Source of the DNA: an uncultured virus (IMG/VR IMGVR_UViG_3300029913_001576)
Lineage: Duplodnaviria; Heunggongvirae; Uroviricota; Caudoviricetes
DNA: 64,000 bases
Strand: one strand, 5' to 3'
IMG/VR virus record: IMGVR_UViG_3300029913_001576
Under the pieces are notes generated by a model. It did not search any database. It saw nothing but the letters and a program-made list of their open reading frames with translations, and had not been told where the DNA came from. Shown here piece after piece: positions 16,060-63,966 of this stretch. The translations under genes and the position numbers were made by a program. Every line of letters starts with the position of its first letter. Within the stretch, counting starts at the first letter, position 1.

Positions 16060-16310
16060 AACCTAATTATGGGCTCGTCGAGCCAACCCAACTCCACGTC
16101 GTAGGTCCAGACGGCCCATGTCTCGATGGGAAACTCAACGTCTGGGAGCTTCTGGGGAACCTGGACCAAATGCCCCTTTTCGAAGATGGAGATCGGGATG
16201 CACCGGCCCCTTAAGCGAATGTACGTGTCATCGACCTCGATCTGTCGAGCGTAGCCTATGAGAAACTCAGGAGACCGTGCGCTCTTGAGCCGGTATTCCT
16301 TCGCCAGCAT
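16056..16310 (-). CDS. hypothetical protein
   Basis: 84 aa; coupled to neighbours. Confidence 0.55.
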   Translation of the reverse strand: MLAKEYRLKSARSPEFLIGYARQIEVDDTYIRLRGRCIPISIFEKGHLVQVPQKLPDVEFPIETWAVWTYDVELGWLDEPIIRL

Positions 16311-16936: not shown

Positions 16937-16976
16937 GGCGGGCAGTATAATTATGGGTGGGAAGGTGTGGGAAATA

Positions 16977-19971: not shown

Positions 19972-19999
19972 ATAGAAAGTATGGTGTGAAGATGGGGGA

Positions 20000-21756: not shown

Positions 21757-21798
21757 GTGCCCTCTAATTATGGGAGGACAAAGGGGGGAAAGTAGGGG

Positions 21799-25895: not shown

Positions 25896-25944
25896 GGTAA
25901 GACAATTATGGGGGCCGCGGCACTTCGAGTGCCGGTGCCTCGAC

Positions 25945-29852: not shown

Positions 29853-29969
29853 TCTCTAATTATGGGACGGAGCGCATCCAAAAACACGGATGCCTGAAAA
29901 AAACGGGATGAGCTGGAAGCATCCTCTCCACCTCGGCCCCCATAATTAGTGAGAACCCAGTATCACAAA

Positions 29970-32848: not shown

Positions 32849-32879
32849 GAACTCCCCTGATCACCCCATACTTATAGGG

Positions 32880-46597: not shown

Positions 46598-46604
46598 ACG
46601 ATAA

Positions 46605-48257
46605 TTATGGGGGTCCGGCAGGGGGTAATTCAGGGATGTAGACCATGTTTTTCTTAGCCTCGCTGACCTCGATGATACCCTGGGAGGCGAGTTCGAGGGC
46701 GTATGCCCCCATGAGCTGGCCACCTTCTGACATCCATTGCTTCCGAAAATCCTTTGAAGACCACCCGCGCTCGGCCGCGATGATGTCCCGGAGGGCCGCG
46801 GTAATGATGACCAGCTCGAACAGCGGCACCCGGCCCCTGAGCCCTGTCCCGCATTCCGGGCACCCGTAACGGCGGTGGACGTGAGAGGGGGGCTTCATCC
46901 GGAACCGTTCATAAAGGTGGCGCTCTTCGTCACTGATGGGGACCTTTACCCGGCACTTCTGGCAAAGGCGGGAGGCAAGGCGCTGCGCAAGGACCACTGA
47001 CAGCGCCGCGGCCAGAGTTACCCGGCTATGGGGCACGAGATCAATGTACCTGGTGATCGTCTCCGTGGCGTCGGGGGCATGGAGGGTGGAAAGCAGGGTG
47101 TGCCCGGTCAGAGCGGCTTCCAACGCCATGCCTGCGGTTTCCGGGTCGCGGATCTCACCCACTAGGATAACGTCGGGGTTCAGGCGCAAGAAGCTGCGCA
47201 GGACAGCGTGAAACGTGAGGTTAGTCTTGCCCCCCACAGGGACCTGGGTGATGCCGGGGAGGGTGTATTCCACGGGGTCCTCTACGGTACGGATGACCAG
47301 GTCGGCACGGTCCAAGGACAGCAGTGAGCAGTAGAGAGTGGTGGTCTTGCCTGAGCCGGTGGGGCCGGTGACAAGCACCATCCCGCCCTTGACCGCGAGC
47401 GCGGTCTTGAAAGGTGCGATGAGGTTCTCGGGCAGCGGGATCTTGGTGGCGGAGGCGATGAGCTTCTGGCTGTCCTGAAGTCTCATGCCCACCGTTTCCC
47501 CCGTATGGGTAGGCGAGAAGGCAATGCGGATGTCGAGGGTCGTGCCATTGGCGAGCTTGGCCTGGAACCGGTCGTCGTGGGGCTTGTACTTCTCGTTCGG
47601 ATTGATGCCTGCCAGCTTCTTCACGCTAGCCAAGAACCCGGCCCTGTGGGTCTTCCTGACCGGGGGAAACACCTCCGCGATGCCCGACAGACGGAAGCGG
47701 ACCTCGATCCTCCACCCGTCATCGTCCAGGAAGATGTCGCTTGCCCCCAGTCCATGGGCGATCTCCAGCATCTTAAGGACGGCATGGCGATAGGTGTCGT
47801 TCGCCTTGAGGTCAGGAACGATCTCCCACGCCTGGGGGACGACCACCGGGGGCGGTAAAACCGCTGCCTGAACGGGCTCCCCGAGGGCTTGCAGCGTCCG
47901 GTCAAGATCCTCGTCCGAACAGGCGCACCAATATATTTCACCTCGCAGCAGCTTGGCGACCTCCCGCCTTAGCGGGGGTTCGTAGAGGCGGGGAGAAACC
48001 ACCGCAGCCACGTCAAACGACAGGAAGAGTGGGAGCCACCCGTGGCCGCCACAGTGCCTCCAGTGAGCGTCATAGGCTGCCTTATCTACCGCCAATTCAT
48101 GGAGCGGAACAAAGGGCCTTCCCGTGGCCTGGGACCATGCGAAGGCTACGTCGGTGACGGTCCAATCTGACTGGGGCTTCGAGGACTTGAGGTGGGGCGG
48201 CAGCTTGTCGATAGACTCAAGTTCATGAGGCGGGAGGTTCTGAAGTAGAGGGGACAT
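46605..48257 (-). CDS. GspE/PilB family secretion ATPase
   Basis: GASDIF, VTGPTGSGKTTTLY, TVEDPVEY, LRLNPDVILVGEIRD, TGHTLLSTLH, CQKC...CPEC zinc motif. Confidence 0.92.
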   Translation of the reverse strand: MSPLLQNLPPHELESIDKLPPHLKSSKPQSDWTVTDVAFAWSQATGRPFVPLHELAVDKAAYDAHWRHCGGHGWLPLFLSFDVAAVVSPRLYEPPLRREVAKLLRGEIYWCACSDEDLDRTLQALGEPVQAAVLPPPVVVPQAWEIVPDLKANDTYRHAVLKMLEIAHGLGASDIFLDDDGWRIEVRFRLSGIAEVFPPVRKTHRAGFLASVKKLAGINPNEKYKPHDDRFQAKLANGTTLDIRIAFSPTHTGETVGMRLQDSQKLIASATKIPLPENLIAPFKTALAVKGGMVLVTGPTGSGKTTTLYCSLLSLDRADLVIRTVEDPVEYTLPGITQVPVGGKTNLTFHAVLRSFLRLNPDVILVGEIRDPETAGMALEAALTGHTLLSTLHAPDATETITRYIDLVPHSRVTLAAALSVVLAQRLASRLCQKCRVKVPISDEERHLYERFRMKPPSHVHRRYGCPECGTGLRGRVPLFELVIITAALRDIIAAERGWSSKDFRKQWMSEGGQLMGAYALELASQGIIEVSEAKKNMVYIPELPPAGPP

Positions 48258-48261
48258 CGAG

Positions 48262-49827
48262 CTATATCCCAATTATGGGGAGACGATCCTCGGTTAACGG
48301 AACCGGCATCTTAAGTGCCCTGAACCGAGGAGCGTGGACCTTGGCAAAGATGCTCGGGACTGCGGTCGGGTCGGCCGGCTTGTGGGTCTCCGCCTCGCGT
48401 TCGGCTGCCACTACCATGCCCCGTTCGGCGAGGTTTTCGACCCACGCACCGGACGGTAGTTCGCGGGTGGATTGGGTGTCGTCCATGCCCGTCAGTGCTC
48501 CAAGGAAGGAAGGCCGGGTGCCAAATGTTGCGGCCGCCGAGACATGGAATTGGGCTACGGCAAACCCCGTATTGGCCATCAGGGCGTCCAGCTTGGCACG
48601 GCTCAAATCGAGTGATCCGCGGTAGGCTTTCATGGTGTCGCCGACCTGTGCCCTCTGGCGGGAATTCCACTTGCGCCGAGCCTCCTGAGCCGCCCAAACG
48701 TCCAGCGGGGGAGCCCTCATTTCGCGGCCAGCAAGGGCCACATAGGCAGTCTTTCCGGAAGGCTGCGGGGTCGCATGTTCAGAGAAGACAGGGGAATAAT
48801 CCCCCGCCTCGGCGGGCGCCCGGGTGGCATTAAAGGCATCCATCGCAGCTTGGGAATGCGCGGTAGAGGCAGCTGTCCACCCGTCGTGGATCTCGGTCCA
48901 GCGAGCGCGAATCCGCTCAGGAGACGGGGTGCCACGGGGGGGCGTCAGACACTCCGATTCGATCTGCTGACGGGACTCATCAATGGTCTTTGCAAGGGTC
49001 ATTTTACCCCTCGCCGAGGCCACCAACGCCGCCGCAGCCGAGGCCGCATCCAGCGATCCAGGGCCTACAGCAAGCATCGAATGGCGGCAAAGAAGGAGCC
49101 AATATGCGAGCTTCGCAGCTATCGAATCCGGAGGGTTGATGTCGCGGCTTAGGCTAACGAAAAGCTGCCGCGCCCGTAGGTTGAAGGTGTTCCGAAGAAA
49201 CTCAAAGCGGTCCTCCTGCTCCTCTTTCTTGTCGAAGTCATTTCCTGAGAACCGGATTAGTTTTCCTGACTCGGTGGTGGGGTGTACGAGCGCATGGCAA
49301 TGCGGATTCTCGGTGTCGTGGTGGCACCCGACAACGTACCCAATGCTCTGGCCTGGGTAGAACCGGGAGGCGTACTGCGTGAGGGTATCGTGGAGGGTCG
49401 CCAGCAACATTGCGTCGATGGGATACCCCAGTCGATTCATCTCTTTTGCGATGCGTGGGTCGAAGGAGGCCGTGACGTGATGCCCCTTGATTGCCGCGTC
49501 TGCTCGGTCGGTTTTCCACCACTCAAGAAGGTGATTTATGGTGGATGTAGGCTGAGCTTTCGTGACATCAACACCGTGCCTGCTAAGCTCTGTGGCAAGG
49601 TGTCCGAAGGTCCAAATTCCTGAGGCAAAGGGGGTGTATTCGGCCTGTTTCTTGTCGGTTGCTTGGGCTCCAGAAGGGGCTCCAAGCGATGAGATAGCCG
49701 TGATCTTTGTGGTCTCGTCGATATAGGATCGGAGCAATTCACTGAGGCGTTTGTTGGTCTTAACCTCATTCAATTTAGCCCACACCCCGGCAGTGTTTGG
49801 AACGCGAGAAAATGCCTCGTAATTCAT
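48262..49827 (-). CDS. relaxase, MOB-P/VirD2-like HUH endonuclease
   Basis: Motif I ..SYI.., motif II HHVTASF, motif III HHDTENPHCHALV; start MNYEAF inferred from ATGA overlap. Confidence 0.75.
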   Translation of the reverse strand: MNYEAFSRVPNTAGVWAKLNEVKTNKRLSELLRSYIDETTKITAISSLGAPSGAQATDKKQAEYTPFASGIWTFGHLATELSRHGVDVTKAQPTSTINHLLEWWKTDRADAAIKGHHVTASFDPRIAKEMNRLGYPIDAMLLATLHDTLTQYASRFYPGQSIGYVVGCHHDTENPHCHALVHPTTESGKLIRFSGNDFDKKEEQEDRFEFLRNTFNLRARQLFVSLSRDINPPDSIAAKLAYWLLLCRHSMLAVGPGSLDAASAAAALVASARGKMTLAKTIDESRQQIESECLTPPRGTPSPERIRARWTEIHDGWTAASTAHSQAAMDAFNATRAPAEAGDYSPVFSEHATPQPSGKTAYVALAGREMRAPPLDVWAAQEARRKWNSRQRAQVGDTMKAYRGSLDLSRAKLDALMANTGFAVAQFHVSAAATFGTRPSFLGALTGMDDTQSTRELPSGAWVENLAERGMVVAAEREAETHKPADPTAVPSIFAKVHAPRFRALKMPVPLTEDRLPIIGI

Positions 49828-50473: not shown

Positions 50474-50516
50474 GCTCTAATTATGGGGTGCCGCGACCAG
50501 AGAGTGCTTCACGAAC

Positions 50517-50800: not shown

Positions 50801-50891
50801 GAGGTTAGACAGTGTCCCTGTGCAAACCCGTCCAAAATCCAAAAAACAGGCTAACCCAGAAAACCACCCCCGGGCCTCCCATAATTAGTAC

Positions 50892-53028: not shown

Positions 53029-53172
53029 TCAGGGGTCCAACCCTCCCCGGTCGAGAACCTTCTGGACGTTCCGGGGGGTGCGCCTCCGGCTACCGAACCA
53101 GCGGGTCGGAGGGGGCATCGTCTTACGGATGCTCTTCAAGATCACGGTCTGGGTGATGGTAGCGGGCTTCAT
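53029..53172 (-). CDS. small basic protein (47 aa; not in the ORF track)
   Basis: ATG 5 nt after CATCTT; MKPATITQTVILKSIRKTMPPPTRWF... Confidence 0.55.
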   Translation of the reverse strand: MKPATITQTVILKSIRKTMPPPTRWFGSRRRTPRNVQKVLDRGGLDP

Positions 53173-53232
53173 AGCACAAGATGGGGGGGCTCCTGCCTAA
53201 ATAATCGGCTGGAACCCCCGAGTTTCAACCCC

Positions 53233-53655
53233 TTAGCGGGCGAAAAGGTGCGCCCCAGCAGTGCAAGGCAGGTAGACCACTTGCCCGAAATGATAGACCC
53301 CTGTGGGTTCGGTCAGGTAGACGATGGCCCCATTGGTCAGCTGCACCGTGATCGCGTCAGAATAGGCGTTGATCTGATGGCCGGAAACAACCGTACCCTC
53401 GTTGGCCTGCACGCTGACCCCGTCAAGAAGGACGGAGAGCCGAAGCCCCTCCCGGCCATCCATGTCCCGGCGAACCTCGATGCGCCTGCCAACCTGGGCA
53501 TGCTTGACCTCCTTGCGGACCTCGGGGCGGGCAACGGGGGCGGCAAGCAGCGGCTTGCGGGAGTCCTGAGCACGGACGGCGGGCTTGGCGTCAGAGGCCA
53601 TAACCGACGACGAAACAGCGAGAAACGTGACAACGAGAGCGATAGTGAGTTTCAT
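53233..53655 (-). CDS. secreted hypothetical protein
   Basis: MKLTIALVVTFLAVSSSVMA signal; ATG 5 nt after CATCTT. Confidence 0.65.
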   Translation of the reverse strand: MKLTIALVVTFLAVSSSVMASDAKPAVRAQDSRKPLLAAPVARPEVRKEVKHAQVGRRIEVRRDMDGREGLRLSVLLDGVSVQANEGTVVSGHQINAYSDAITVQLTNGAIVYLTEPTGVYHFGQVVYLPCTAGAHLFAR

Positions 53656-53844
53656 GGAGCAAGATGGGGTCGGCGAAATGGGGTACAACCAAGCACCTCC
53701 CAACCGAGCCCCCACCGGTTGTTCCCCGTCAAGAAGCTGTCTCCACAGAGTAGCGGTTCCCTGGGAAGGTGATGGCAACCCGGGCAATCTGGCCCTCGGC
53801 GTCGCTAGGGTACACCTCAATGAGGCGAATCGCAGTCATAGGGG

Positions 53845-54318
53845 CTAGACCGTGGCGTAGGTCTCGGGGGTGCGACGATGGGCCGGGACGGGGCGATATT
53901 GGGTCAAAGCTGCCCGGCGGGCGAAAACGAGCCGTGGCAGGCCCTTCCCGAACTGGTCGGCGGTGGGATCTGCGATCCAAAGATCCGGACCTGCCTCGAA
54001 AGTAACTGCAACATGCCAAGCCACAGCCCCATCGGCCATAGCGTAGCTGAATTCTGCCAGGCGGAAGGTGATCCACGGGAACGCGCGAATGAGCGACTCC
54101 ACAAGCCCGTCAGACTCGTCAGCGCACCGGCCCTCAAACACCCTCGGGTTGTCACCCCACCCCAGGAAAGCCTCTGAGGCAGCCCGCCAGGTCGAGCAAT
54201 GCTCGGCGATCTCCTCCACAAGGGGGCCGGAAGAGGCTATTGCCCCCTGCACGCCGGCAAGGATTGTCGCGGCGGCCGCCTGGAGAGTGCCTGCGTCGGT
54301 AACTGTGGGCGTTCCCAT
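53845..54318 (-). CDS. hypothetical protein, possible transglutaminase/papain-like fold
   Basis: GRCADES...WHVAV...WIADPTADQF gives a Cys-His-Asp arrangement. Confidence 0.55.
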   Translation of the reverse strand: MGTPTVTDAGTLQAAAATILAGVQGAIASSGPLVEEIAEHCSTWRAASEAFLGWGDNPRVFEGRCADESDGLVESLIRAFPWITFRLAEFSYAMADGAVAWHVAVTFEAGPDLWIADPTADQFGKGLPRLVFARRAALTQYRPVPAHRRTPETYATV

Positions 54319-54356
54319 GCTTCCAAGTTGGGAGGCGCGCGTGGGCAGGCCGGAAG

Positions 54357-55001
54357 CTAGCGAGCCCGTAGCTCTAGGGAGGCCCCCCGGGGGGTAGGCA
54401 AACGGCGGGTCGCTCGCCGTGGGAGGAGGCCCTCAAGGGCGGCAAAGTCGTGCTCCGGTGTGCCGCTCAGGATCACATTCTGAAAGGTGGCCATTTCAGC
54501 CAGCTCAACCGAGGCGCTTGCCATGCGGCGCGAAAGCTCGGCGGGAGACATGTTGCCACGGGCAACCAGGCGGTCCCGAAGAGTATCGAGGGAGTCGGCG
54601 GCCACGAAGACCTCTATCAGCCGGCCATGGAGGCGGGGATCGCCCGAAGCAGCCTTCCTCAGGCTTCGGGCGCCCTGGATGTCGAGGATGCCCACAAGGT
54701 TCGTATGGTCGAGCCGGTCAACGACAGCGGACCGCAAAGTCCCATAGCGGTGCTTCCCGTGGACGTACGCCCATTCCAGGAAGTCGTCGCCCTGGAGGCG
54801 GGCATCGAACTGTGCCTCACTCATGAACAGATAATCAACGCCGTCCACCTCGCCTGGTCGCGGGTCGCGGGTCGTGGCAGTCACGAGACGCTCAAAGCCA
54901 GGGACCTCGCGAGCAACCCGGTTGCACAAAGTCGTCTTACCGGCGCCTGACGGGCCGACGATGACAAGGAGGTGTGTCGGGGACTGTGAATCGTGCTGCA
55001 T
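54357..55001 (-). CDS. gmk: guanylate kinase
   Basis: GPSGAGKTT, TTRDPRPGEVDGVDYLF, FLEWAYVHG..YGT, DIQGA. Confidence 0.92.
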   Translation of the reverse strand: MQHDSQSPTHLLVIVGPSGAGKTTLCNRVAREVPGFERLVTATTRDPRPGEVDGVDYLFMSEAQFDARLQGDDFLEWAYVHGKHRYGTLRSAVVDRLDHTNLVGILDIQGARSLRKAASGDPRLHGRLIEVFVAADSLDTLRDRLVARGNMSPAELSRRMASASVELAEMATFQNVILSGTPEHDFAALEGLLPRRATRRLPTPRGASLELRAR

Positions 55002-55048
55002 CCTCAACAAGTATGGGGGGGGGCGATTCGCAGCGCGTTCAAGATGCA

Positions 55049-55195
55049 CTAGACCCGGAAGACGCCGTAGACATGGCGCGGGGCAACAGCCGTCCGGTTC
55101 CGGCGCTCCATCGCCATGCGGATCAGGACGTACATCGCAGGGAGAAAGAAAACGAGGGCGACTACAGCGTAGTCGAAGGGCTCAAGGGGTGTCAT
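55049..55195 (-). CDS. small membrane protein (48 aa; not in the ORF track)
   Basis: ATG 5 nt after CATCTT; single TM helix YAVVALVFFLPAMYVLI. Confidence 0.55.
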   Translation of the reverse strand: MTPLEPFDYAVVALVFFLPAMYVLIRMAMERRNRTAVAPRHVYGVFRV

Positions 55196-55211
55196 GACCC
55201 AAGATGGCGAC

Positions 55212-55433
55212 TCAACCCCCGAGGACCGGCTGCTTCGCGCGGATGGACTCGATCATGCGAAAAGCGCCACCCGGACCATCCGGGGCCGTGAGCGAGCGGT
55301 TCGCCTGCATCCGCTCATTGTCCGAAAAGACATCCTCCTTGACCGCACGCCGCATCCAGTCGTCGAGGCTCTCGGCGGACGTGGGGGCGCAAAGGTCGGC
55401 GATAGCTACGAGGAGTTCTTCGATGTCATGCAT
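55212..55433 (-). CDS. hypothetical protein
   Basis: 73 aa; CATCTT motif upstream. Confidence 0.6.
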   Translation of the reverse strand: MHDIEELLVAIADLCAPTSAESLDDWMRRAVKEDVFSDNERMQANRSLTAPDGPGGAFRMIESIRAKQPVLGG

Positions 55434-55449
55434 GGTGCGTCAAGATGGG

Positions 55450-55749
55450 TCATTGGCTGAGCGAGTTTTCGAGCGACATAAGCGCAGGATGTCCGTGACC
55501 AAGAACCTTGTTCAGCGCCATGGACACCCGACCAGGAGTCAGGCCCATTTCTCCGTAGGAAAGGCGACCGAGCCTGACGGCGAGCTTGCGCGCCTGCTCG
55601 GTGGTGATGAGGGCATGGCTCACAGCTCGGTCCAGAGCGCCTGGCACATGAGCCGGTGCGACTGTGACCGGATTGTGGAACTTCTCCTGTTGGCGAAGAC
55701 CAACCGAGTGGTGCGTGTCGTTGTAGAGGCCGGAGATGGATTTGGACAT
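55450..55749 (-). CDS. hypothetical protein
   Basis: 99 aa; ATG 5 nt after CATCTT. Confidence 0.6.
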   Translation of the reverse strand: MSKSISGLYNDTHHSVGLRQQEKFHNPVTVAPAHVPGALDRAVSHALITTEQARKLAVRLGRLSYGEMGLTPGRVSMALNKVLGHGHPALMSLENSLSQ

Positions 55750-55783
55750 AAAGCAAGATGGGTCGGCGGCTCCTCTGGTCCGA

Positions 55784-55975
55784 TCAAGCGTGCGCAGGAG
55801 GGGCGGATTTGGCGGACGCAGCCTGGAGTTCTGCGTTAAACCGGCAGAGATAGTCGTGGGCTGTCTCGACGTTGTAGTTCCTGCGATTCACCGCGTCCGC
55901 GACCTTCTTCGAGAAGGTCTCGAAAATGGCCTTACCTGTTGCTTTGCACGTCACGATCCAGCTATGAGGTTGCAT
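55784..55975 (-). CDS. small hypothetical protein
   Basis: MQPHSWIVTCKATGKAIFETF...; ATG 5 nt after CATCTT. Confidence 0.65.
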   Translation of the reverse strand: MQPHSWIVTCKATGKAIFETFSKKVADAVNRRNYNVETAHDYLCRFNAELQAASAKSAPPAHA

Positions 55976-56044
55976 GTGACAAGATGGAGTTCGTAGGACA
56001 GCGACGGAAGTCGCTACACTCGCCGCCGGGATAGCCCCTAAGTC

Positions 56045-56080
56045 AAAAGGGGTGCCTGGCTTACCCATGGCACCCCTTTT
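56045..56080 (-). terminator. intrinsic (possibly bidirectional) terminator
   Basis: AAAAGGGGTGCC...GGCACCCCTTTT 12-bp inverted repeat just downstream of the tRNA-like gene. Confidence 0.75.
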
Positions 56081-56086
56081 GGAAAT

Positions 56087-56149
56087 TGGCGGCCGCGTGG
56101 GATTCGAACCCAGAGGCTATCATCCCCTGCCCCAGTGGTCAGCGCAGCC
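56087..56149 (-). ncRNA. 63-nt truncated tRNA-like RNA with encoded CCA
   Basis: Acceptor stem GGCTGCG/CGCGGCC, G discriminator plus CCA, T arm TGGG-TTCGAAT-CCCA, stem with 7-nt loop ATGATAG. Confidence 0.65.
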
Positions 56150-56190
56150 GTATAAGGAACCTAGTGAAGCAAGATGGCCTGAGCGGAACG

Positions 56191-56433
56191 CTAACTCCGG
56201 TCCCGAAGGGCAACCGTCGCTCCCGTCGAGTAACGGCCTGTGGGAACGATTGCGGCGGTGAACCGCTCGTTCAGTCGGCCCAAGATCGTGTCCAGTCGGA
56301 ACTCGGCATTGGGACGGCCACCGTTCCTCCGAAGCTTCGACCCGACGATGGACTCCACCTTGCTGGTCGCTACTTCGTAGACGACGACATCAAAGAGAGG
56401 CGCTGTCGATTGCGAGTGGGTTTGCATGGGCAT
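56191..56433 (-). CDS. hypothetical protein
   Basis: 80 aa downstream of the methyltransferase. Confidence 0.55.
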   Translation of the reverse strand: MPMQTHSQSTAPLFDVVVYEVATSKVESIVGSKLRRNGGRPNAEFRLDTILGRLNERFTAAIVPTGRYSTGATVALRDRS

Positions 56434-56441
56434 GGGAGTGG

Positions 56442-57797
56442 TCAGGTCGAGGCGAAGAGGGGAAGGTCCTCGACTCCGCTCGAAACAGGGGCGCGCACGA
56501 TGGCGGTTGCCGCTCGGATCACGGCGGTGAAGAGGGGGACGTAGACCGCCTGACCCAAAAGTCTCCAGGCGCGAGTCTTGGCCTCGGGGAGTACGTAGCT
56601 GTCGTTCAGGCCAAAGATTCGGCGGCCCTCGCTCACGGTGAAGTAGCGATAGGTGTCCGGCAACGTGGGATGGGCAAGCAACGGCTGATCGTTCTTAGTT
56701 TCGCCATACTCGGCGGTCAAAGTGCCCATGGAAATATCAGTCGGTTTGACGACCTGGAACCCGAAACCGCTACCGCGCTCAGCATTGCGCTCGTTGACCC
56801 GGAAGACCCACGGCTTGCTTTCGCGGTTCCACCAAAGCTCCTGGGGAACGTCGCGGTCAAGAAGGTCGCCCACGGTGGTGCGCCGGGCATCAGTCGCGAG
56901 GGGGGTCGGCCACACAAAGGGCTGGCGGCCGGCCTCGGGAGTCGTGGCAACGAGGACGGTGCGCGTGCGCTTTGAAACCGCGCCAAAATCCGCAGCGCTC
57001 ATGACCTGGCTGTCTACGCTGTAACCCAGGCGGCGGAGGGCGCCAGAGAGGCTTGCCCAAAGCTCCTTATCCTTGAACCCCGGGGCGCACTCCAGGATGA
57101 CCGTGCGCGGGTTGACGCGGGAGATGATGAGGAACGCCCAGAAAGCCATGTCGCCCAGCGGGTGTTCGGTGGCGGGCCGCGAGCGGTCGATCTTGCTGCC
57201 GTCGGCGTTGAGCGTGCGGCAGCGCGCCCAAGGCTGGCATGGGAGGCCGAGTAAGAGCAATTCAACCGGCGTGAGACTCGTGGAAAAAGCCGCCTCGTGG
57301 ACCGACATTTCGTAGACGGCCGCGCTCGGGTGGTTTCCGGAGTAGGTGTCGGCCGTGCTGCCCTCGATCTCGACCGCCCATTTGGCGGTATAGCCGGCCT
57401 CGACGCCGGCCTGGTCAAGGAGGCCAGCGCCGGAAAAAAGGGAGCCCATCGAGCCATCGCTCGGGCGCGCCCGCTGCTGTTGGTCGAGCGGATGGACCGT
57501 AAGCACGATCTCGCGCTCGCTCACTCGCACTTGGATCGTCCGGGAATCGCCGAAGACCTCCGACAAAAACTTCGCATTGAGGTCGATCAAGGGGTGCCCG
57601 TTCTTCTCTTGGACGCGCTTGCCGGAAGGCTCCTCGCAAGGGCTGATCGAAAGAGTGCCCGCGCCCATTCGGATCGAAATCCATTGGCCGCCGGCGAAAC
57701 CGGCCCTGGCAAGGTATCGGGCATTGACGAAATAGCGGGGTGCGCCGCGCTGCTGCCCAAGATGCACTACGGACTCATGGATGAGGTTCGATTTCAT
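56442..57797 (-). CDS. C5 cytosine DNA methyltransferase with extra N-terminal (AbrB/SymE-like) domain
   Basis: SLFSGAG (motif I), GLPCQ (IV), LECAP (VI variant), KRTR (VIII), RYFTVSEGRR, LLGQAV (X). Confidence 0.88.
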   Translation of the reverse strand: MKSNLIHESVVHLGQQRGAPRYFVNARYLARAGFAGGQWISIRMGAGTLSISPCEEPSGKRVQEKNGHPLIDLNAKFLSEVFGDSRTIQVRVSEREIVLTVHPLDQQQRARPSDGSMGSLFSGAGLLDQAGVEAGYTAKWAVEIEGSTADTYSGNHPSAAVYEMSVHEAAFSTSLTPVELLLLGLPCQPWARCRTLNADGSKIDRSRPATEHPLGDMAFWAFLIISRVNPRTVILECAPGFKDKELWASLSGALRRLGYSVDSQVMSAADFGAVSKRTRTVLVATTPEAGRQPFVWPTPLATDARRTTVGDLLDRDVPQELWWNRESKPWVFRVNERNAERGSGFGFQVVKPTDISMGTLTAEYGETKNDQPLLAHPTLPDTYRYFTVSEGRRIFGLNDSYVLPEAKTRAWRLLGQAVYVPLFTAVIRAATAIVRAPVSSGVEDLPLFAST

Positions 57798-57821
57798 GGC
57801 GATTGAGGCTTCAAGATGGAG

Positions 57822-58013
57822 TCAGGTGGGACGGGTCTGCGCCTTGCGGACAGCCCTGGCGATGAGTTCATCGAGCGCGGCCTGCTTCACCTTCTTGCCC
57901 GGACCATCGAGGGTAATCAGGACGCAGCGGAGCGTCGCGTCATCAGCGGCAGGGACCTTCGAGAGGTCCGTGGGAGCCAGCCAGCCGGCCAGCGGTTGCT
58001 CGGGTGTGCTCAC
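57822..58013 (-). CDS. hypothetical protein
   Basis: 63 aa in the array. Confidence 0.45.
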   Translation of the reverse strand: MSTPEQPLAGWLAPTDLSKVPAADDATLRCVLITLDGPGKKVKQAALDELIARAVRKAQTRPT

Positions 58014-58026
58014 GGGAATAATCCCG

Positions 58027-58224
58027 TCAGCCCTGGGAATCGGGCGTCGCCAACTGCTTGAAGCGGTGGTGGCGAATTACCCAAACCGCACCGGCCACAA
58101 ACGCCACCGTCGCAATCGAGTGGCTCAGAATGTAATGCCCCGGACGATTCGCCGTAAGAGTCTGCGCAAAGGCGGCCAGCAGAAACACGGCGCAGAGGAC
58201 ACGGTCGAAGCGATGGGATTTCAT
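58027..58224 (-). CDS. small membrane protein
   Basis: Two TM helices; CATCTT motif upstream. Confidence 0.55.
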   Translation of the reverse strand: MKSHRFDRVLCAVFLLAAFAQTLTANRPGHYILSHSIATVAFVAGAVWVIRHHRFKQLATPDSQG

Positions 58225-58248
58225 GGGATGTAAGGCAAGATGGGCTCC

Positions 58249-58563
58249 TCAGTAACGACGCTCGCGTGCGCGGTCAGCTTTCTCCAGTTCCATGTCGATC
58301 ACCTTCGAGTGGCGCTCGATGTACTCGGCCACGGCAGGATAGCGTCCGTCGAGCCAGTTCGCGTCACGGAGGCGGTCCAGATAGCTGGCGGGCACTTCGC
58401 CGATGGGTTGCCCAACAAAGGCGCCAAACGGCATCGTGCTCTTGTCGTCCATGACCCGAAAGGAGCGGGAAGCAACTACCGGGGCCACGGGACCGCGAAA
58501 GCCCTCGCGAACATACTCGTCGCCACGGCGGATGCCGGTATCGGTCAGTGTGTCGGATTCCAT
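58249..58563 (-). CDS. DUF3820-like protein
   Basis: MPFGAFVGQPIGEVPASYL motif. Confidence 0.7.
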   Translation of the reverse strand: MESDTLTDTGIRRGDEYVREGFRGPVAPVVASRSFRVMDDKSTMPFGAFVGQPIGEVPASYLDRLRDANWLDGRYPAVAEYIERHSKVIDMELEKADRARERRY

Positions 58564-58577
58564 GCCCCAAGATGGGG

Positions 58578-58961
58578 CTAGCCGGCAATCGCGCGGCGGC
58601 CGCTCCAAGTGCCATCGGCCTCTAGGCACTCGATGACATCCGCCTTGTCAGCGGAGATGTCCCGCCAACCAACCGGCAGGCAAAGAAAGGCGAAATCGTC
58701 CCCGACCAGGACAACATCTCCGGTCGAAAGGCTGCGGGTCCTCCCCGCAACTGAGGCCCACTTCCCGCCCTGCTCCGGATTGTTCGAGAGGTCGAACGCG
58801 TACTCGGCGGCCTGCACGGGCGTGGTGCCCTCGGGCAAATCAACTACGAAGGCGATGCGCCGCGTCGGAATATCGACCTTCGTGCCCGATACCTGCGTGC
58901 CCGACGCAACAGTCTTGCTGATGCTCATGCCGAACATGATCGCCGTAAGTTTCGTGGTCAT
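58578..58961 (-). CDS. YodL-like hypothetical protein
   Basis: AF..SN...RSLSTGDVVLV...GW motif. Confidence 0.6.
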   Translation of the reverse strand: MTTKLTAIMFGMSISKTVASGTQVSGTKVDIPTRRIAFVVDLPEGTTPVQAAEYAFDLSNNPEQGGKWASVAGRTRSLSTGDVVLVGDDFAFLCLPVGWRDISADKADVIECLEADGTWSGRRAIAG

Positions 58962-58994
58962 CGTACCCCAAGATGGGAGGGGCGCGCCCGGGCC

Positions 58995-60008
58995 TTAGGC
59001 CGCAATCCCTTGAACGTGGCGGGCTGCGAAGAACTTCCCGATTGCCTCGCCAAGTGCCTCAAACGGGCGGGCGACAACGCCCTGCCCAAGGACCTCATAC
59101 GCGGTCGTCCGGGGAAGTTTGGCAATGGCGGCGATGAAGGCATCGTCAAACCCGTGGATGCGGGCGACCTCGGTCGGGCGAAGGAGGCGGTAGCTGCCCT
59201 CGCTTGTGCCGCTGCTCACGAAAACGCCCGTGGGCTGAATCTTGCCATACGACTTCGGAATCGTCGGGACCTTCACGCTTTGGCGGGTAAGGATGCGGCG
59301 GGAGAACCCGCAACCTTCGCTGGCCTTGCGGTCGCAATACTTCGTGTGTGCTGCAACCTGCGCGGGGCTGAACTCGTCGGCCTTGTCCTGATCCGTGACC
59401 GGGTCCAAAAGGTTCTCAATCGTGCCGCTAAAGTGGACCGGGGAGTAATCCCAGCTGAACCGGCCCAAACGGGAGGCGACCATGACCCAGCGCACGCGCT
59501 CCGTAGCGGTGTTGAAGTCCGTGAACGGATTGACGACGTACTCGCTCAACTGGTAGCCAATCGCCGAGAGGTGGGCGCGAATGGCTGCCGCGCTGAAGGT
59601 CGTCCGGTAATTGCTTACGTTCTCGAAAACGACGCCCTCGGGGCGGCGCAGCGTGATTTCGTGGAGAGTCGGGATGAACAGGTGCCCAACGTCCGGGTGC
59701 ATCTCGGCGCACGATAGACCGTTCTTGGAAATGCCCGCTGAACTCGCGCCGGTGCAGGGAATGCCAGCGAGGAAGATGTTCGTCGCGTTGCCGGAGGGAA
59801 AGCTGGTCTCCTCGGGAGCATACCCAGTGACTGAACCAAGGGCGGTCGAGGCTTCGGGGTGCTGGTCGGAGAAAAGGCGCAGGTAGCGACCGTCAATCTC
59901 GACGACTCCAGCGACGGCCACCTTGCCATAACGGGAAAGGCCACGGGAGAAAGGGGCGCAGAGCGTGCCCATCCCGGGGAAGAACTCTTTGAGAGCGAAG
60001 GTTGCCAT
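58995..60008 (-). CDS. C5 cytosine DNA methyltransferase
   Basis: FFPGMG (I), GIPCTG (IV), FENV (VI), ERVR (VIII), RLLRPTEVARIHGF, LGQGV; start MATFAL 5 nt after CATCTT. Confidence 0.88.
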   Translation of the reverse strand: MATFALKEFFPGMGTLCAPFSRGLSRYGKVAVAGVVEIDGRYLRLFSDQHPEASTALGSVTGYAPEETSFPSGNATNIFLAGIPCTGASSAGISKNGLSCAEMHPDVGHLFIPTLHEITLRRPEGVVFENVSNYRTTFSAAAIRAHLSAIGYQLSEYVVNPFTDFNTATERVRWVMVASRLGRFSWDYSPVHFSGTIENLLDPVTDQDKADEFSPAQVAAHTKYCDRKASEGCGFSRRILTRQSVKVPTIPKSYGKIQPTGVFVSSGTSEGSYRLLRPTEVARIHGFDDAFIAAIAKLPRTTAYEVLGQGVVARPFEALGEAIGKFFAARHVQGIAA

Positions 60009-60075
60009 AAACCAAGATGGGGCGGGCGTCCGGGCGTAGGTCGGCCAAGCGACAGCATTCAGCCCGACTCGCCAG

Positions 60076-60756
60076 CTACCGTTTGAAAGTGACGGCGTCG
60101 GTCTGTGCCCAACCGCACGCAACGAGGAACTGGCGGCAAACCTCCTGCGTGATGTCGGCATCCGTTGAGCCCTTGGGGGCGGGGATTTCGTCGGCACCAA
60201 AGAGGTCGAGCTGGCCTGTCGGAAGCACGGCGGAGGTCTGGATGCGAACCGTCGCGGGCTTGGCCCAAGCTATAAGGGCCGTGGCAGCGATGAGGTTGCT
60301 GGCGGAAAGAGCGGCCTCAATGACGGCGGGGCGACCGGCGGGCCTCTCCAAACCCGTGCGCAGGGCAATTGAACCTGCGGCGGTGGTGAGCGTGTTGCCA
60401 TCAATCGTCCACGTCTCGGTCGAAACGATGCGAACCGAAAAGGCGCGAAGGGAGGGAAGAATTTGGGCGAGCCCGACCGAGAGCTTGACGCGAACCTCGG
60501 GAGCCGAAAACCGGGCCATGACAGACGACCCCTCGTAAGAAAGGATCGCGGAACCGTTCCGCTTGGAAACGTGGGTGCTGGAGAGAATCGCGGGGCGGAT
60601 GTTCAGCCCCGGTCCCATGCGAGGCTCGACGACGAAGCCCGTGCCAACGTCGAATCCGTTGTTGCTCAGGCGGGAGTAGGAATCCTCAACCCAAAGCCGA
60701 CGATTCAGGCCGGTAGAGCAGTTGCCCAGAGTGGTGAGGATGCTGTCGGATCTCAT
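60076..60756 (-). CDS. methyltransferase-associated protein resembling the N-terminal domain of the 56442-57797 product; has QLDLF
   Basis: RLWVE...RL...GF..G pattern similar to RYFVN...LARAGF..G. Confidence 0.6.
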   Translation of the reverse strand: MRSDSILTTLGNCSTGLNRRLWVEDSYSRLSNNGFDVGTGFVVEPRMGPGLNIRPAILSSTHVSKRNGSAILSYEGSSVMARFSAPEVRVKLSVGLAQILPSLRAFSVRIVSTETWTIDGNTLTTAAGSIALRTGLERPAGRPAVIEAALSASNLIAATALIAWAKPATVRIQTSAVLPTGQLDLFGADEIPAPKGSTDADITQEVCRQFLVACGWAQTDAVTFKR

Positions 60757-61066
60757 GGTGCAAGATGGGGTCAGCGTAGGTCGCGAGGCGTGGAAGGCGG
60801 ATGTGCAGCGAGGGTACAGGCACAGTGGAAACTACGGCGCCCACGGCGTGCGGGTCGCCGGGCCATGCATGCATGACCTCGACTAGCCAGATTTCGTGGG
60901 GCGTCTCGCGGACGCGCTCGAACTCGGAAACGCAGTTGCGGGCAGAGCCAGCCCTGCGTCACGCATAGACGCCCGGGCGGTCGGACTCTGGGTCGGGCCG
61001 CAACCCGTGGGCCGAGATGTCGTCGCGGCTGAGCGACGGGGCCACGTGGAAGTAGATCCAGCTCAC
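60686..61066 (-). pseudogene. ADP-ribosyltransferase/Tpt1-like ORF interrupted by in-frame TGA
   Basis: GTG 61066: MSWIYFHVAP...I.AHGLRP...GVYA, stop at 60959-60961, then ...EIWLVEV...DP...PVPSLHIR. Confidence 0.45.
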
Positions 61067-61377
61067 TTCCGGGGCGACTTGGCGCGAATCGCCTTCAGCT
61101 TGAGGTGCTTTCGCAGTGCCGCGCCTGTGAAAGGCGTGCGCTTCTCTGCAAGGTGCTTGGCGATGACGGCGCAGGTCTCCTCCCAGCTGCGGGTCTCCCA
61201 GAGGTCCTGACCTTCGGGGGACAACTCAACCTCGGCGAGCGCCACGGCGACCGCGCTTAGGTTGTAAAAGTTGCCGATTTCGCGGAGATGGTCGGCGTGG
61301 TCATCGGGGATCTCCCGGGCGATGCAAGCAGCGTTGGCGGCGGCGGCGAGGGCAAGGGCGGCAGTGGTAGCGGTCAT
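61063..61377 (-). CDS. hypothetical protein
   Basis: 104 aa; ATG 5 nt after CATCTT. Confidence 0.65.
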   Translation of the reverse strand: MTATTAALALAAAANAACIAREIPDDHADHLREIGNFYNLSAVAVALAEVELSPEGQDLWETRSWEETCAVIAKHLAEKRTPFTGAALRKHLKLKAIRAKSPRK

Positions 61378-61413
61378 GTCCCAAGATGGCGGCCGTGCCC
61401 TTACCGGGGGGTG

Positions 61414-61884
61414 TCAGACAGCCAGCAGCGGTTGCCCCATGGTAACGGCCTTCGCAACCTTCGCGGTGCGTGCCGGCGCGAGGCTCTTCGTAGGCAACGA
61501 AGTCTTGAAGAAAAGGGCGGTGCCGGAGTCGGCTCCATATCGGAGTTCGTAACCCCAAGTCCGAATCCCCGGAGCACTTCCGATCCGGGTATCGGTGGGC
61601 TTGCTGGGCTCAATCATGCGCGAGACGATGATGTCGCGGCCGAGGGTCAGCGGATCAAGAGCCGTGACTTCGTGGACGTTGTGCGCCCACTCCGAACGGT
61701 CTCCGGAGAAGTGGCACGTCTTCACGAGGTAGAGGTCACCGACTTTTAACTCGCTCAAGGAGTGGATTCGGGCTCCCGGCTGAAAAGCCCCCCACCCCAC
61801 CTTGGGGTCGGCTGTCGGGAAAGGCGGCTTCCTGCTCGGAACCTGTGCGTAAGCCCGGCGATGGGCCGTTGGGGCAGCGTTCAT
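61414..61884 (-). CDS. hypothetical protein
   Basis: 156 aa; ATG 5 nt after CATCTT. Confidence 0.65.
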   Translation of the reverse strand: MNAAPTAHRRAYAQVPSRKPPFPTADPKVGWGAFQPGARIHSLSELKVGDLYLVKTCHFSGDRSEWAHNVHEVTALDPLTLGRDIIVSRMIEPSKPTDTRIGSAPGIRTWGYELRYGADSGTALFFKTSLPTKSLAPARTAKVAKAVTMGQPLLAV

Positions 61885-61953
61885 GGGCCAAGATGGGGCA
61901 AGGGTCGCCCTAGCCGCCTCCCGGGATGCCAAGGCCGTCCAGCCTGGCCTGGG

Positions 61954-62322
61954 TCAACCCATGCTGCGGTTTGACCGGAGAACCGCCCGAAGCTGGTACG
62001 CCTGAATCGCCTGTTGGGGGGTCATCCGGGAAGCTCGTTGGCCACCCATCCACCCCCACTTGGCCATTGCCAGCCAAAGTGCAGCGCTCGTCACGAAAAA
62101 GAAGGTAATCGCGGCAAACACGACCAGTTGCCACGCAAGCGGAACGCCCCTCATTTGCCACTGCATCCACTCGATGGCCTCGGCTGTAGCTGCGGCGGAC
62201 AGGTAAAACCCCACCAACGAGCCGACTGCGGAGGCGGCAATAGCGGCCAAGGTCGCGAAAAATAGCGAAGCACTCGCAAAAAACGTGCCTACGGCGAGGA
62301 TGAATGACTCAAGGTGCTCCAT
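61954..62322 (-). CDS. membrane protein
   Basis: MEHLESFILAV...; TM helices; ATG 7 nt after CATAAT. Confidence 0.6.
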   Translation of the reverse strand: MEHLESFILAVGTFFASASLFFATLAAIAASAVGSLVGFYLSAAATAEAIEWMQWQMRGVPLAWQLVVFAAITFFFVTSAALWLAMAKWGWMGGQRASRMTPQQAIQAYQLRAVLRSNRSMG

Positions 62323-62373
62323 GCTGTAAATTATGGGGGATCTCGGGGCACTGCTACCGGGACCTCGCACCGG

Positions 62374-62607
62374 TTATCGGAGGCAGGGATCGCCGGCGGC
62401 AAGCCTTTTGGCGATGTCCACGGCCTGCGACTCCACGCCAAGCCAGTCGTCGTAAGCCTCAGTTGCGGGAAACCCGTTCGCCTGGGATGTGACGATCCAA
62501 GCGCCCTCACCGTCGCTCTCTGCCCAGAAGAACAGACCGGGCTGGGACGTTGACTCGAATTTGATCGGCTCCTTCGAGGGACTGGCGACGGCCGGGGATA
62601 CGCTCAT
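62374..62607 (-). CDS. hypothetical protein
   Basis: 77 aa; ATG 5 nt after CATCTT. Confidence 0.65.
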   Translation of the reverse strand: MSVSPAVASPSKEPIKFESTSQPGLFFWAESDGEGAWIVTSQANGFPATEAYDDWLGVESQAVDIAKRLAAGDPCLR

Positions 62608-62678
62608 GGGGCAAGATGGCTGCGGAAAGTCTCGCTAGGGCGCCGCAAACGGGCAAGAAAGCCCGATAACGCCCTCAA

Positions 62679-62930
62679 ATGGACCAAGTGGCTACTCCTC
62701 CAGGCTTCGTCGATCAAATGCCCCAGCGGGGGGCGTGGAATGCCCCTGTGAGCGAGCCTGAGCCCTGTAGCTGGGACAATCAGGTCCTGTTGCCTGACGG
62801 GAGGACAAGCTACGGGGTGTTCATGCCGGGAGCCGGATGGTACGTCCGGGACCGGTTCCTAGACGTTCTCGGGTGGCGGAAGCTGGACAACCGGCAGATC
62901 ACCTGCGGGCGCGACCTGCGATCCCTCTAA
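62679..62930 (+). CDS. hypothetical protein (DUF551-like)
   Basis: W......P...VL.....W......VLGWRKL; fills the gap between minus-strand genes. Confidence 0.5.
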   Translation: MDQVATPPGFVDQMPQRGAWNAPVSEPEPCSWDNQVLLPDGRTSYGVFMPGAGWYVRDRFLDVLGWRKLDNRQITCGRDLRSL

Positions 62931-62980
62931 GGAGGCCCCCCGGGGGGTGGGTAAACGGAGGGCGAAACGCCCACAGGCGT

Positions 62981-63325
62981 TCAAACCGGGTGCGAGTCCA
63001 GTTCCTCAATCGCCCTGCGGGCGTCGTGAGCGGACATCGTGGGGCGCACGTAACCGGCAGTCTGGATGCGGTTCCGGAACTCGGTCTTGACGGCGAGAAA
63101 CTTGTCAGCGCCCAGCATTTCAAGCTCGGAGGCAAAAAGGCCCTCCTGTGCGTGGTACCCCTCGACCTGCTCTAGCGCCCGGCGGTACTTCGCCGCCAGC
63201 TCGCGATTGCGCTCGCGGTACTTCTGGAGACGCTCGGAACTGCCCGCAGCGAGCCATGTGAAGAAGCCAGAGGCCAAGGCCGCAGCTACCGCGGAGCCCC
63301 CAGTGACAATGTTCGGGTCAATCAT
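62981..63325 (-). CDS. membrane-anchored coiled-coil protein
   Basis: N-terminal TM helix; ATG 5 nt after CATCTT. Confidence 0.65.
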   Translation of the reverse strand: MIDPNIVTGGSAVAAALASGFFTWLAAGSSERLQKYRERNRELAAKYRRALEQVEGYHAQEGLFASELEMLGADKFLAVKTEFRNRIQTAGYVRPTMSAHDARRAIEELDSHPV

Positions 63326-63966
63326 ACCCCAAGATGGGAGGCGTCGGAATAGAGGTACAAATGCCGCAGGTCCCTCTCCCGCTCAACGGTCGCCGGAGAG
63401 AAGTCTCCCATGGCTGGCATGTCGAACCGCACGACCGCCTTTCCGTGACGCGTGCCGACGACCGTGCCGCAAAGGACCCCCGAGCGATTGAAGACGGGCG
63501 CAAGCCGAGGATCGCGGCACACAAAATGGACAAGGTTTCCGATGAGTGCGACCGGGTCGCCGGACGCAGGGACCATGTCGGCGCCGAACGTGTCGTGCGA
63601 ATGCCTGTCGGGCTGCATCAGGGCCTCGTCAGTGACAAGGATTGGGCTCGTGTAGTTCGAGAGGTTTTCGCCGCCATCGGCCTGCTGCACGACCTCTACG
63701 GGCAACGGATGCCCGTAGGTCGTGCCGTAGCGCTCATTGTAGCCCAGGAAGCGGATGCCGGTGAGGGCTTCCCATGCGCACGAGGTGGTGTGAAATGTGG
63801 ACTCGCGATTGATGAACCTCACGCGCCCGTCGATGGTGATGACCGCGCTCGACGCACTCATGCTGCTCCACAGCGTGAACCGGCGACCGGCGATGATAAC
63901 GTCATACCGGCTGTGCCAACCTGGGGCGGGGAAAGACGAAGGGACCTTGTGCCCGTTCAACCGCAT
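63322..63966 (-). CDS. hypothetical protein
   Basis: 214 aa; start uncertain near the window edge. Confidence 0.55.
   Translation of the reverse strand: MRLNGHKVPSSFPAPGWHSRYDVIIAGRRFTLWSSMSASSAVITIDGRVRFINRESTFHTTSCAWEALTGIRFLGYNERYGTTYGHPLPVEVVQQADGGENLSNYTSPILVTDEALMQPDRHSHDTFGADMVPASGDPVALIGNLVHFVCRDPRLAPVFNRSGVLCGTVVGTRHGKAVVRFDMPAMGDFSPATVERERDLRHLYLYSDASHLGV

Follow-up and report, generated by a model that had tools for sequence, protein, structure and literature searches.

The expression of the first genes after conjugation is known for few proteobacterial and Firmicute plasmids, where it proceeds via hairpin single-strand promoters, the CUP/ArdK system or antitermination. Here we describe two short, related sequence boxes in IMGVR_UViG_3300029913_001576, an IMG/VR record from an uncultured virus. 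The whole stretch of 64,000 nucleotides, referred to as the window, has 61% G+C and the gene content of a conjugative element. About 38 start-proximal boxes of the two kinds organise this 64-kb element. The class II box is CCATCTTG (hexamer CATCTT), and the class I box is CCCATAATT, together with its variant CCATACTT. From the sequence, we consider it probable that the boxes are core promoters without a -35 element that produce leaderless or near-leaderless transcripts, with CCATCTTG marking a leading-region set of genes. Most likely, CCATCTTG is the leading-region variant of an element-wide promoter type shared with CCCATAATT.

Several described systems resemble these boxes in part. Leaderless genes are reported to carry a TANNNT-type -10 signature about 10 nt before the start codon (PMC2238952). 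As in the leaderless promoters of Actinomycetota and Deinococcus-Thermus, whose TANNNT lies about 6–7 nt before the start codon, the boxes combine an A2/T6 hexamer before ATG with the absence of a Shine-Dalgarno (SD) sequence and little or no role of a -35 element (PMC2238952). Differences are that the first base of the hexamer is C, with two or three C before it, that all 8–9 positions are fixed, and that the boxes are specific to a mobile element, not genome-wide, and form two sequence classes. The CUP sequences, binding sites of the ArdK repressor with a 13-nt consensus, are reported from the leading region of IncN plasmids (pKM101/R46), and likewise constitute a conserved upstream element repeated before several leading-region genes, which it joins into a single regulon (PMC6289460). 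Unlike CUP, the box described here spans 8 bp, no repressor was found in the window, and the transcripts are predicted to be leaderless. The Frpo and ssi elements reported from the leading regions of F-like and IncI plasmids share the presumed place, purpose and strand, and the orphan methyltransferases (PMC11541004). While Frpo is formed by extended hairpins imitating a -35 and a -10 element, the spaces between genes here mostly measure 14–70 nt, and the longer ones fold ordinarily.

The late promoters of phage T4 (TATAAATA), read by gp55, are repeated, fixed 8-bp boxes that consist of a -10 element without a -35, and the T4 early promoters stand before small early genes. The boxes of the window resemble the late promoters in being fixed 8-bp boxes without a -35, present in many copies, one per small gene. 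The sequence differs, no gp55-like or sigma-like protein was found in the window, and the carrier is a conjugative element. A further likeness is to the sigma-32 promoters (CTTGAA-N13-15-CCCCATnT), as the reported dnaK P1 -10 region CCCCATTTA shares the CCCCAT core and the A at -11 (PMC10216364). The class II box reads (C)CCATCT, with a preceding C at 11 of the 17 sites described below and another C before it at 10 of 17, and the class I box reads CCCCATAAT, with an A where the last T is expected. Unlike sigma-32 promoters, neither class has CTTGAA or another -35 element upstream. The best match to the RpoH model TIGR02392 in G001, a genome carrying a relative of the element and not the genome of the host of the window, reaches 171 bits, where the cut-off is 323. 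Because CTTGAA is absent and no G001 protein passes the RpoH cut-off, we do not file the box as a sigma-32 type. To our knowledge, RpoH is not established outside Proteobacteria. The titles and abstracts searched on leaderless genes, start sites and promoters of Verrucomicrobia, and on a CCCCATAAT promoter, mention no such motif.

The window contains 20 exact copies of CCATCTTG, compared with a mean of 2.28 and a maximum of 6 in dinucleotide-preserving shuffles (n=100). Seventeen of them are located on the minus strand within 10 kb (53177-63337), at one copy per 190–1640 nt on this single strand. In 12 of the 17, the gap between box and ATG is exactly 4 nt, equal to 5 nt past the hexamer CATCTT; our recount of both numbers is identical to that of the preliminary description of the window. 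Four other copies have gaps of 7, 7, 11 and 14 nt (8, 8, 12 and 15 nt past the hexamer), and the copy at 56170-56177 has neither an ATG within 32 nt nor an open reading frame (ORF) of at least 30 aa behind it. The remaining three copies (20775+, 28125+ and 38666-) lie antisense within long genes and are consistent with chance. All 16 ORFs behind the box (47–451 aa) start with ATG. Two of them are C5 cytosine methyltransferases (PF00145, E 3.2e-21 and 1.5e-27), and the other 14 belong to no family in Pfam, PHROGs or NCBIfam. The sequence flanking the boxes is unconserved, and variants with one mismatch occur at gene starts of the block only at 54324-54331 and 55040-55047. In an unbiased count of the 7-mers located 3–7 nt before any ATG of the window, CATCTTG and CCATCTT rank top.

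The positions expected of a leaderless promoter, A at 2 and T at 6 of the hexamer, are present in 17 of 17 class II sites (CATCTT) and in 21 of 21 class I sites (CATAAT/CATACT). The hexamer of class I ends 6 nt before the start codon at 9 of 21 sites and 5–8 nt before it at 14 of 21, with the 55009 site measured from ATG. Beyond the class II box, a pyrimidine is found 3 nt away at all 17 sites, followed by an A at 16 of them. This pair is retained at four of the five sites in which the ATG is displaced or missing (P about 2-3e-4). Transcription start sites usually have a pyrimidine at -1 and a purine at +1. Since the pair stays fixed where the ATG moves, and a translation signal would not need it, this favours a promoter. 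The hexamer positions, the spacing and the pair are all consistent with the leaderless-type -10 promoter that the preliminary description had proposed.

In such a mechanism, RNA polymerase would read CATCTT with the A at the -11 place and the T at the -7 place, without need for a -35 element, and transcription would begin at the conserved A after the pyrimidine, 5 nt past the hexamer. In 12 units, this A would coincide with the A of the ATG, resulting in a leaderless mRNA that would therefore require no SD sequence. The three units with the ATG 7, 7 and 11 nt past the box have a predicted leader of 3–7 nt. At the 57812 site the fixed position is a C, so no start can be placed. One unit would yield a tRNA-like RNA. 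The core transfer, replication and relaxase genes would use (C)CCCATAATT, with CATAAT 6 nt before the start codon.

The tRNA-like unit (56040-56177, minus strand; fold z -3.2) comprises the box at 56170-56177 and, from a start predicted at the A of 56165, a leader of 16 nt and a 63-nt tRNA-like core. The core has a 7-bp acceptor stem, the T-loop motif GGTTCGAATCC, a loop resembling an anticodon loop with GAU and an encoded G-CCA 3' end. It is followed on the 3' side by a terminator, a 13-bp hairpin with a T run. That one copy of the box precedes a non-coding RNA, as noted in the preliminary description, is supported by a tRNA-like core and a strong terminator hairpin. ARAGORN and Rfam made no call on the unit, which may be a member of a small-RNA family.

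The class I box was missed in the preliminary description. CCCATAATT occurs in 17 copies in the window, against 0.10 expected, and the pattern CCATA[A/C]TT, which also includes CCATACTT, identifies 21 sites on both strands that follow the gene direction. At 20 of these, the start codon of an ORF of at least 30 aa is found within 1–13 nt, most commonly after 5 nt (9 sites). The genes concerned include those for the Toprim protein, the RecD2 helicase and the T2SSE ATPase, the type IV secretion operons, and a small gene ahead of the relaxase together with its divergent neighbour. The leading block itself contains two of the sites (62329-62337 and 55009-55016). CATAAT differs from TATAAT by a single base, and the 6 nt from its end to the start codon would be the canonical register for a transcript beginning at the A of ATG. 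A purine is found 7 nt past the hexamer at 18 of 21 sites, and the -35 area shows only a weak A/T-rich patch. Both boxes share CCAT and T and fit (C)CCAT-N-N-T. The preliminary description had placed the block under a promoter class distinct from that of the core genes, and the core genes indeed carry CCCATAATT. We infer that the two boxes are regulated differently.

The element encodes a MobA/VirD2-type relaxase (48262-49956, minus strand, PF03432), a T2SSE-type ATPase, a coupling protein (37080-40286), a TraC/VirB4-like ATPase (26440-29046), a TrbI-like protein, a RecD2-like helicase and a 1049-aa Toprim protein. A spacer of 392 bp (50487-50878), flanked by divergent class I boxes, separates the box block from the operon of the relaxase and the small gene ahead of it. 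Upstream of this operon, the spacer contains five iteron-like direct repeats, CGTCCCACCTRAGGGAG, and the inverted repeats CGTCCCACC/GGTGGGACG, with the repeats spanning 50509-50780, and is a plausible candidate for an origin of transfer (oriT) or a replication origin. The class II genes are all on the side of the spacer opposite the relaxase, and all are oriented towards it. Leading-region genes are reported to have the transferred strand as template, with orphan methyltransferases among them (PMC11541004). As the orientation of the box genes equals that reported for leading-region genes, it is plausible that the block is the leading region of a conjugative element, given its position and orientation and a presumed nick site and direction of transfer.

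A search of species genomes with the TraC alignment returned one true relative among 20 loci, an integrated element in the Verrucomicrobiae metagenome-assembled genome G001. The TraC proteins of this element and of the window share 57% identity, and 22 window proteins match the element in synteny at 27–62% identity. Type IV secretion genes are present in the G001 element; the relaxase, the coupling protein and the leading block were not found in it by tblastn. The class I box, or a variant that keeps its A and T (CCCCACAGTT), precedes the orthologs of 29388, 29949, 20692, 16316 and 13822, with different flanks. The gene directly after the T2SSE ATPase in G001 is preceded by CCATAATG, 5 nt and ATG, at the same relative place as the window box at 46603..46611. 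The orthologs of the divergent pair at 29858..29947 are preceded by CCCCACAGTT, 5 nt and GTG, and by CCCCATAATT, 28 nt and ATG; the box of gene 29949 is thus located 22 nt before the probable ATG in the window and 28 nt before the ATG of the ortholog. The orthologs of the genes behind the boxes at 21766..21774 and 16949..16957 are preceded by CCCATACT and CCCCATAAT, respectively.

TraC as a single protein had no match in genome_contigs, and the TraC alignment yielded one short 68% fragment in metagenome_contigs and no match in viral_contigs. The best plasmid matches to TraC have 22–26% identity. The relaxase has five distant relatives, all on short contigs, and none in plasmids. A second class I pair, on contig C5 of G001, was considered as a second element and rejected, as the pair is isolated. 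In C5:222001-302000 (L076-L079), GTATATA occurs 91 times in 80 kb, often as ...TCTATATA..., and may be a host promoter or repeat word; locus L001 of the same genome has 63% G+C.

In the genomes searched, the box is not an ordinary gene-start signal. G001 contains one CCATCTTG-N4-ATG, equal to the reversed control, and 34 copies of CCCATAAT against 18 for the control, five of the 34 in or near the G001 element. Among 401 sampled Verrucomicrobiae genomes, CCATCTTG-N4-ATG is present in 286, mostly in 1–3 copies. For 41 sites fetched from such genomes, an ORF of at least 100 aa stands behind 4 and one of at least 47 aa behind 10, compared with 12 of 12 in the window. The excess over the reversed control arises from coding sequence, in which the word spells Ala/Pro-Ile-Leu codons. 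In the three richest genomes, the word is present as a repeated, IS-like identical copy (13/17) in one and scattered, mostly within coding sequence, in the other two. The former is the richest genome, the 2.8-Mb Verrucomicrobiae genome G066, where these 13 copies of an identical CCATCTTGGGCAATG are spread over three contigs and probably mark where an insertion sequence present in many copies begins. A host-wide gene-start signal is rejected for the sampled Verrucomicrobiae genomes. We also rejected plus-strand genes that start from the ATG inside CAAGATGG: only 6 of the 17 ORFs reach 50 aa and all lack a known family, whereas two methyltransferases are encoded among the ORFs of the minus strand.

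Several points weigh against reading the boxes as promoters. We infer the transcription start at the predicted A from the sequence. The distance of 5 nt from the class II hexamer to the start is one below that of class I and the usual optimum. No conserved column or enriched 4–6-mer indicative of a -35 or UP element is found between -42 and -8 in either class. All 8 positions of the box are invariant in the 17 copies, far tighter than in a housekeeping -10, so that a dedicated reader would be expected, and none was found among the window ORFs. Segment 56081-56129 (49 nt) of the tRNA-like unit recurs in other contigs, whose flanks differ, in each of four metagenome runs compared, and could be the relic or core of an attachment site rather than an expressed RNA. 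Searches with TraC and the relaxase found no relative that carries a leading region, and the conservation described above is that of the class I box. Many neighbours in the block are 14–36 nt apart without a terminator in between, which makes for overlapping units. The preliminary description had made each gene its own transcription unit. This is correct only in part, as transcripts from such closely spaced neighbours must be nested and overlapping. Finally, a box placed right before the start codon of each gene, also inside operons and in the 3' end of an upstream ORF, also resembles a ribosome-binding signal.

This resemblance underlies the first alternative, in which the ribosome, S1 or an RNA-binding protein of the element recognises the box on RNA as a non-SD ribosome-binding or enhancer sequence, and the cistrons of polycistronic transcripts are translated separately. 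We regard it as unlikely. Such a signal would be expected once before every gene, close to the ATG and with constant spacing, as is the box, and the lack of terminators between many neighbours fits polycistronic transcripts. SD sequences are also near-absent from the element, in accordance with the preliminary description: of 79 crude ORF starts in the window, 7 have an SD-like word before them, and the sole strong one is AAGGAGG before 16977-17465. A crude SD/-10 test on 204 ORFs of G001, of little informative value, gave no SD enrichment. Against this, the 16S rRNA of G001, used as a proxy genome, has a canonical 3' end, GATCACCTCCTTTCT, and contains no exact complement of either box; complements with one mismatch are internal only (positions 301-1354). 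One box precedes the non-coding tRNA-like RNA, the pyrimidine-A pair stays in register with the box where the ATG is displaced, and the box does not precede ordinary genes in the sampled Verrucomicrobiae genomes. Some class I boxes are located 22–43 nt from the ATG, with this arrangement retained in an ortholog. Given the divergent pairs, the 43-nt site and the ortholog pair at 22/28 nt, some class I sites cannot be ribosome sites. Class I is also close to a consensus -10, and the short intergenic spaces hold no other promoter candidates. A scan of 50–64 kb for consensus sigma-70 promoters gave 1 site against 1.9 expected, and the same scan upstream of the G001 16S rRNA found nothing. With SD sequences near-absent, no 16S complement and the sigma-70 scan at chance, no other candidate could be found for a ribosome site or a promoter.

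It is also possible, if quite improbable, that CCATCTTG is an operator, bound by a repressor or activator of the element over a promoter that is silent in the donor and gives a burst after transfer (zygotic induction). The invariance of 8 positions in 17 copies exceeds what contact with polymerase needs, the box is confined to the leading block, and the repeated conserved upstream elements reported to be bound by ArdK provide a precedent (PMC6289460). An asymmetric 8-bp site without a second half-site would be unusual for a repressor, however, and no DNA-binding protein family was found among the window ORFs. The element-encoded sigma factor or activator suggested in the preliminary description did not materialise either: searches of the window ORFs in Pfam, PHROGs and NCBIfam identified no sigma factor, RNA polymerase or DNA-binding regulator. 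An 86-aa ORF beside the candidate oriT has only below-threshold matches, including a phage cluster with Sigma70_r2 in 16% of its members, and was set aside as unusable. An operator is compatible with the promoter reading and not opposed to it.

We give very little weight to an RNA processing site, at which an endoribonuclease would cut long transcripts a few nucleotides before the AUG and release leaderless mRNAs. The fixed distance to the AUG and the close-packed genes without terminators would suit such cleavage, but the family searches revealed no nuclease candidate. The -10-like class I box works in divergent pairs with spacers of 44–96 bp, into which no upstream promoter fits, and one pair fills a 44-bp intergenic space, so that further promoters could not be accommodated. 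In the tRNA-like unit, the box is located 16 nt upstream of a mature-looking 5' end. Least probable of all is a DNA-level signal, such as a site that primes complementary-strand synthesis on the transferred single strand, a cassette boundary or a short homology for module shuffling: the box lies on a single strand every 190–1640 nt, the element encodes the 1049-aa Toprim protein and the leading block has strain variants in four metagenome runs, but the exact 4-nt link to the ATG ties the box to gene starts, variant breakpoints (e.g. 62955, 54963, 53341) miss the boxes, and the five gaps of >100 nt, folded as DNA on both strands, behave unlike single-strand promoters (z -3.1 to +1.1, the sole strong fold being the RNA unit).

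The class II units, all on the minus strand, line the leading block from its far end towards the spacer. The box at 63330-63337 (unit 62981..63337, 114-aa ORF) is placed inside the 3' end of the upstream ORF 63322-63966, with an ATGA overlap, and has the ATG at +4 nt. The same spacing is found for the boxes at 62612-62619 (unit 62374..62619, 77 aa), 61889-61896 (61414..61896, 156 aa), 61382-61389 (61063..61389, 104 aa) and 60761-60768 (60076..60768, 226 aa). It is found again at 60013-60020 (58995..60020), which precedes the first methyltransferase (337 aa, PF00145 E 3.2e-21). At 58969-58976 (58578..58976, 127 aa), T-A occupies the fixed place and the ATG is at +7 nt, leaving a predicted leader of 3 nt. 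The box at 58568-58575 (58249..58575, 104 aa, ATG at +4 nt) begins 2 nt after the stop codon of the upstream gene. The next one, at 58236-58243 (58027..58243, 65 aa), has T-A at the fixed place, the ATG at +11 nt and a predicted leader of 7 nt. The second methyltransferase (451 aa, PF00145 E 1.5e-27) follows the box at 57812-57819 (56442..57819), the sole site without A at the fixed place, with the ATG at +14 nt.

Beyond the tRNA-like unit, the ATG is at +4 nt for the boxes at 55980-55987 (unit 55784..55987, 63 aa), 55754-55761 (55450..55761, 99 aa) and 55200-55207 (55049..55207, 48 aa). Among these, the box at 55441-55448 (55212..55448, 73 aa) has C-A at the fixed place and the ATG at +7 nt. 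The one-mismatch class II box CCAACTTG at 54324-54331 (53845..54331) precedes a 157-aa ORF at +5 nt. The last two boxes have the ATG at +4 nt: 53660-53667 (53233..53667) precedes a 140-aa ORF with a signal-peptide-like N-terminus, and 53177-53184 (53029..53184) a 47-aa ORF. The latter is followed by four close-packed or overlapping ORFs (51184-52982, minus strand; 121, 141, 187 and 153 aa), the closest to the candidate oriT, which have no box, SD sequence or family. They probably depend on the promoter at 53177 for transcription and on coupling for translation.

Two units of the block carry class I boxes on the minus strand. CCCATAATT at 62329-62337 (unit 61954..62337) has the ATG 6 nt past the 8-mer and precedes a 122-aa ORF. 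CCATACTT at 55009-55016 (54357..55016) has the ATG at +7 nt and precedes a 214-aa guanylate-kinase-like protein (54357-55001, minus strand), an unusual leading-region cargo whose match to TIGR03263 (145 bits) is below the cut-off of 160. In a 373-nt gap, an 83-aa ORF at 62679-62930 (plus strand) is the sole opposite-strand ORF of the block with good third-position G+C (0.76); it has no family and no box.

The stretch occurs in DNA runs labelled peat metagenome. All 24 listed runs are peat-metagenome DNA contigs, with no RNA run among them. A record of 98,317 bp (behind locus L069) carries the TraC gene of the window at 100% identity; judged by where this match falls, the record extends about 28 kb ahead of the window and about 6 kb beyond it. 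Cover of the window in four DNA runs is near-identical, apart from a few strain breakpoints. Contigs from the four runs diverge from the window at 62922-62955, 54931-54963 and 53341, none of them at boxes, which suggests that strains differ in the genes of their leading block.

Outside the block, the spacer is flanked by the class I boxes at 50878..50886 (plus strand, ATG at +5 nt, 86-aa ORF 50892-51152) and 50479..50487 (minus strand, ATG at +5 nt, 113-aa ORF 50132-50473 ahead of the relaxase). The box at 48271..48279 (minus strand) is located within the 3' end of the relaxase and precedes the T2SSE-type ATPase at +13 nt, and that at 46603..46611 (minus strand) precedes a 204-aa ORF at +5 nt. 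The divergent pair at 36795-36803 (minus strand) and 36814-36822 (plus strand) stands back-to-back in the 44-bp intergenic space. The transfer region also contains 36224-36787 (minus strand), with a weak TIR-domain match (E 3.8e-4, under the cut-off), and 41973-42533 (plus strand), a PLD-like nuclease domain protein; from their sequences, both are possible defence or exclusion genes.

CCATACTT at 32866..32873 (plus strand) precedes a 444-aa ORF at +6 nt. A second divergent pair is formed by 29858-29866 (minus strand, ATG at +5 nt) and 29939-29947 (plus strand, probable ATG at +22 nt). On the minus strand follow 25904..25912, inside an operon (ATG at +8 nt), 21766..21774 (ATG at +9 nt), CCATACTT at 19977..19984 (ATG at +5 nt, with CCATCTTC 4 nt upstream), 16949..16957 (ATG at +12 nt) and 16065..16073 (GTG at +5 nt). 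The box at 14517..14525 (plus strand) precedes a 247-aa ORF at +5 nt. The third pair consists of CCATACTT at 10031-10038 (minus strand), before the RecD2-like helicase, and CCCATAATT at 10157-10165 (plus strand), before the 1049-aa Toprim protein, each with the ATG at +5 nt. The two remaining boxes are on the minus strand, at 7195..7203 (ATG at +4 nt) and at 2819..2827, where the first ATG is 43 nt past the 8-mer and the unit would have a leader.

The position and orientation of the class II set, together with its two orphan DNA methyltransferases, make it plausible that the set is an early establishment programme with its own timing and reader. We further suggest, as a rather doubtful possibility, that an element family of uncultured Verrucomicrobia-like bacteria runs a private two-word, -35-less, leaderless promoter code. 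In it, CCCCATAATT would drive the transfer and maintenance genes and CCCATCTTG a burst regulon of about 16 establishment genes and the tRNA-like RNA. The reader that distinguishes the two words could be a small sigma-like protein of the element, acting in the manner of gp55 at the late promoters of T4. Alternatively, methylation by the two C5 methyltransferases of the regulon could shut the block after entry. With neither a -35 element nor an SD sequence, first expression would, if this is true, be independent of host-specific signals.

The boxes would represent an economical solution in a lineage without a cultured model: an 8-bp box and a start codon, with no -35 element, leader or ribosome-binding site. 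If they are promoters, they show where the transcription units lie and allow start codons to be corrected for about 38 of about 80 genes, about 80% of which have no known family. They would also define a set of candidate establishment or anti-defence genes, and the element would offer a small system in which to examine how host range can be widened by -10-only promoters and leaderless translation.

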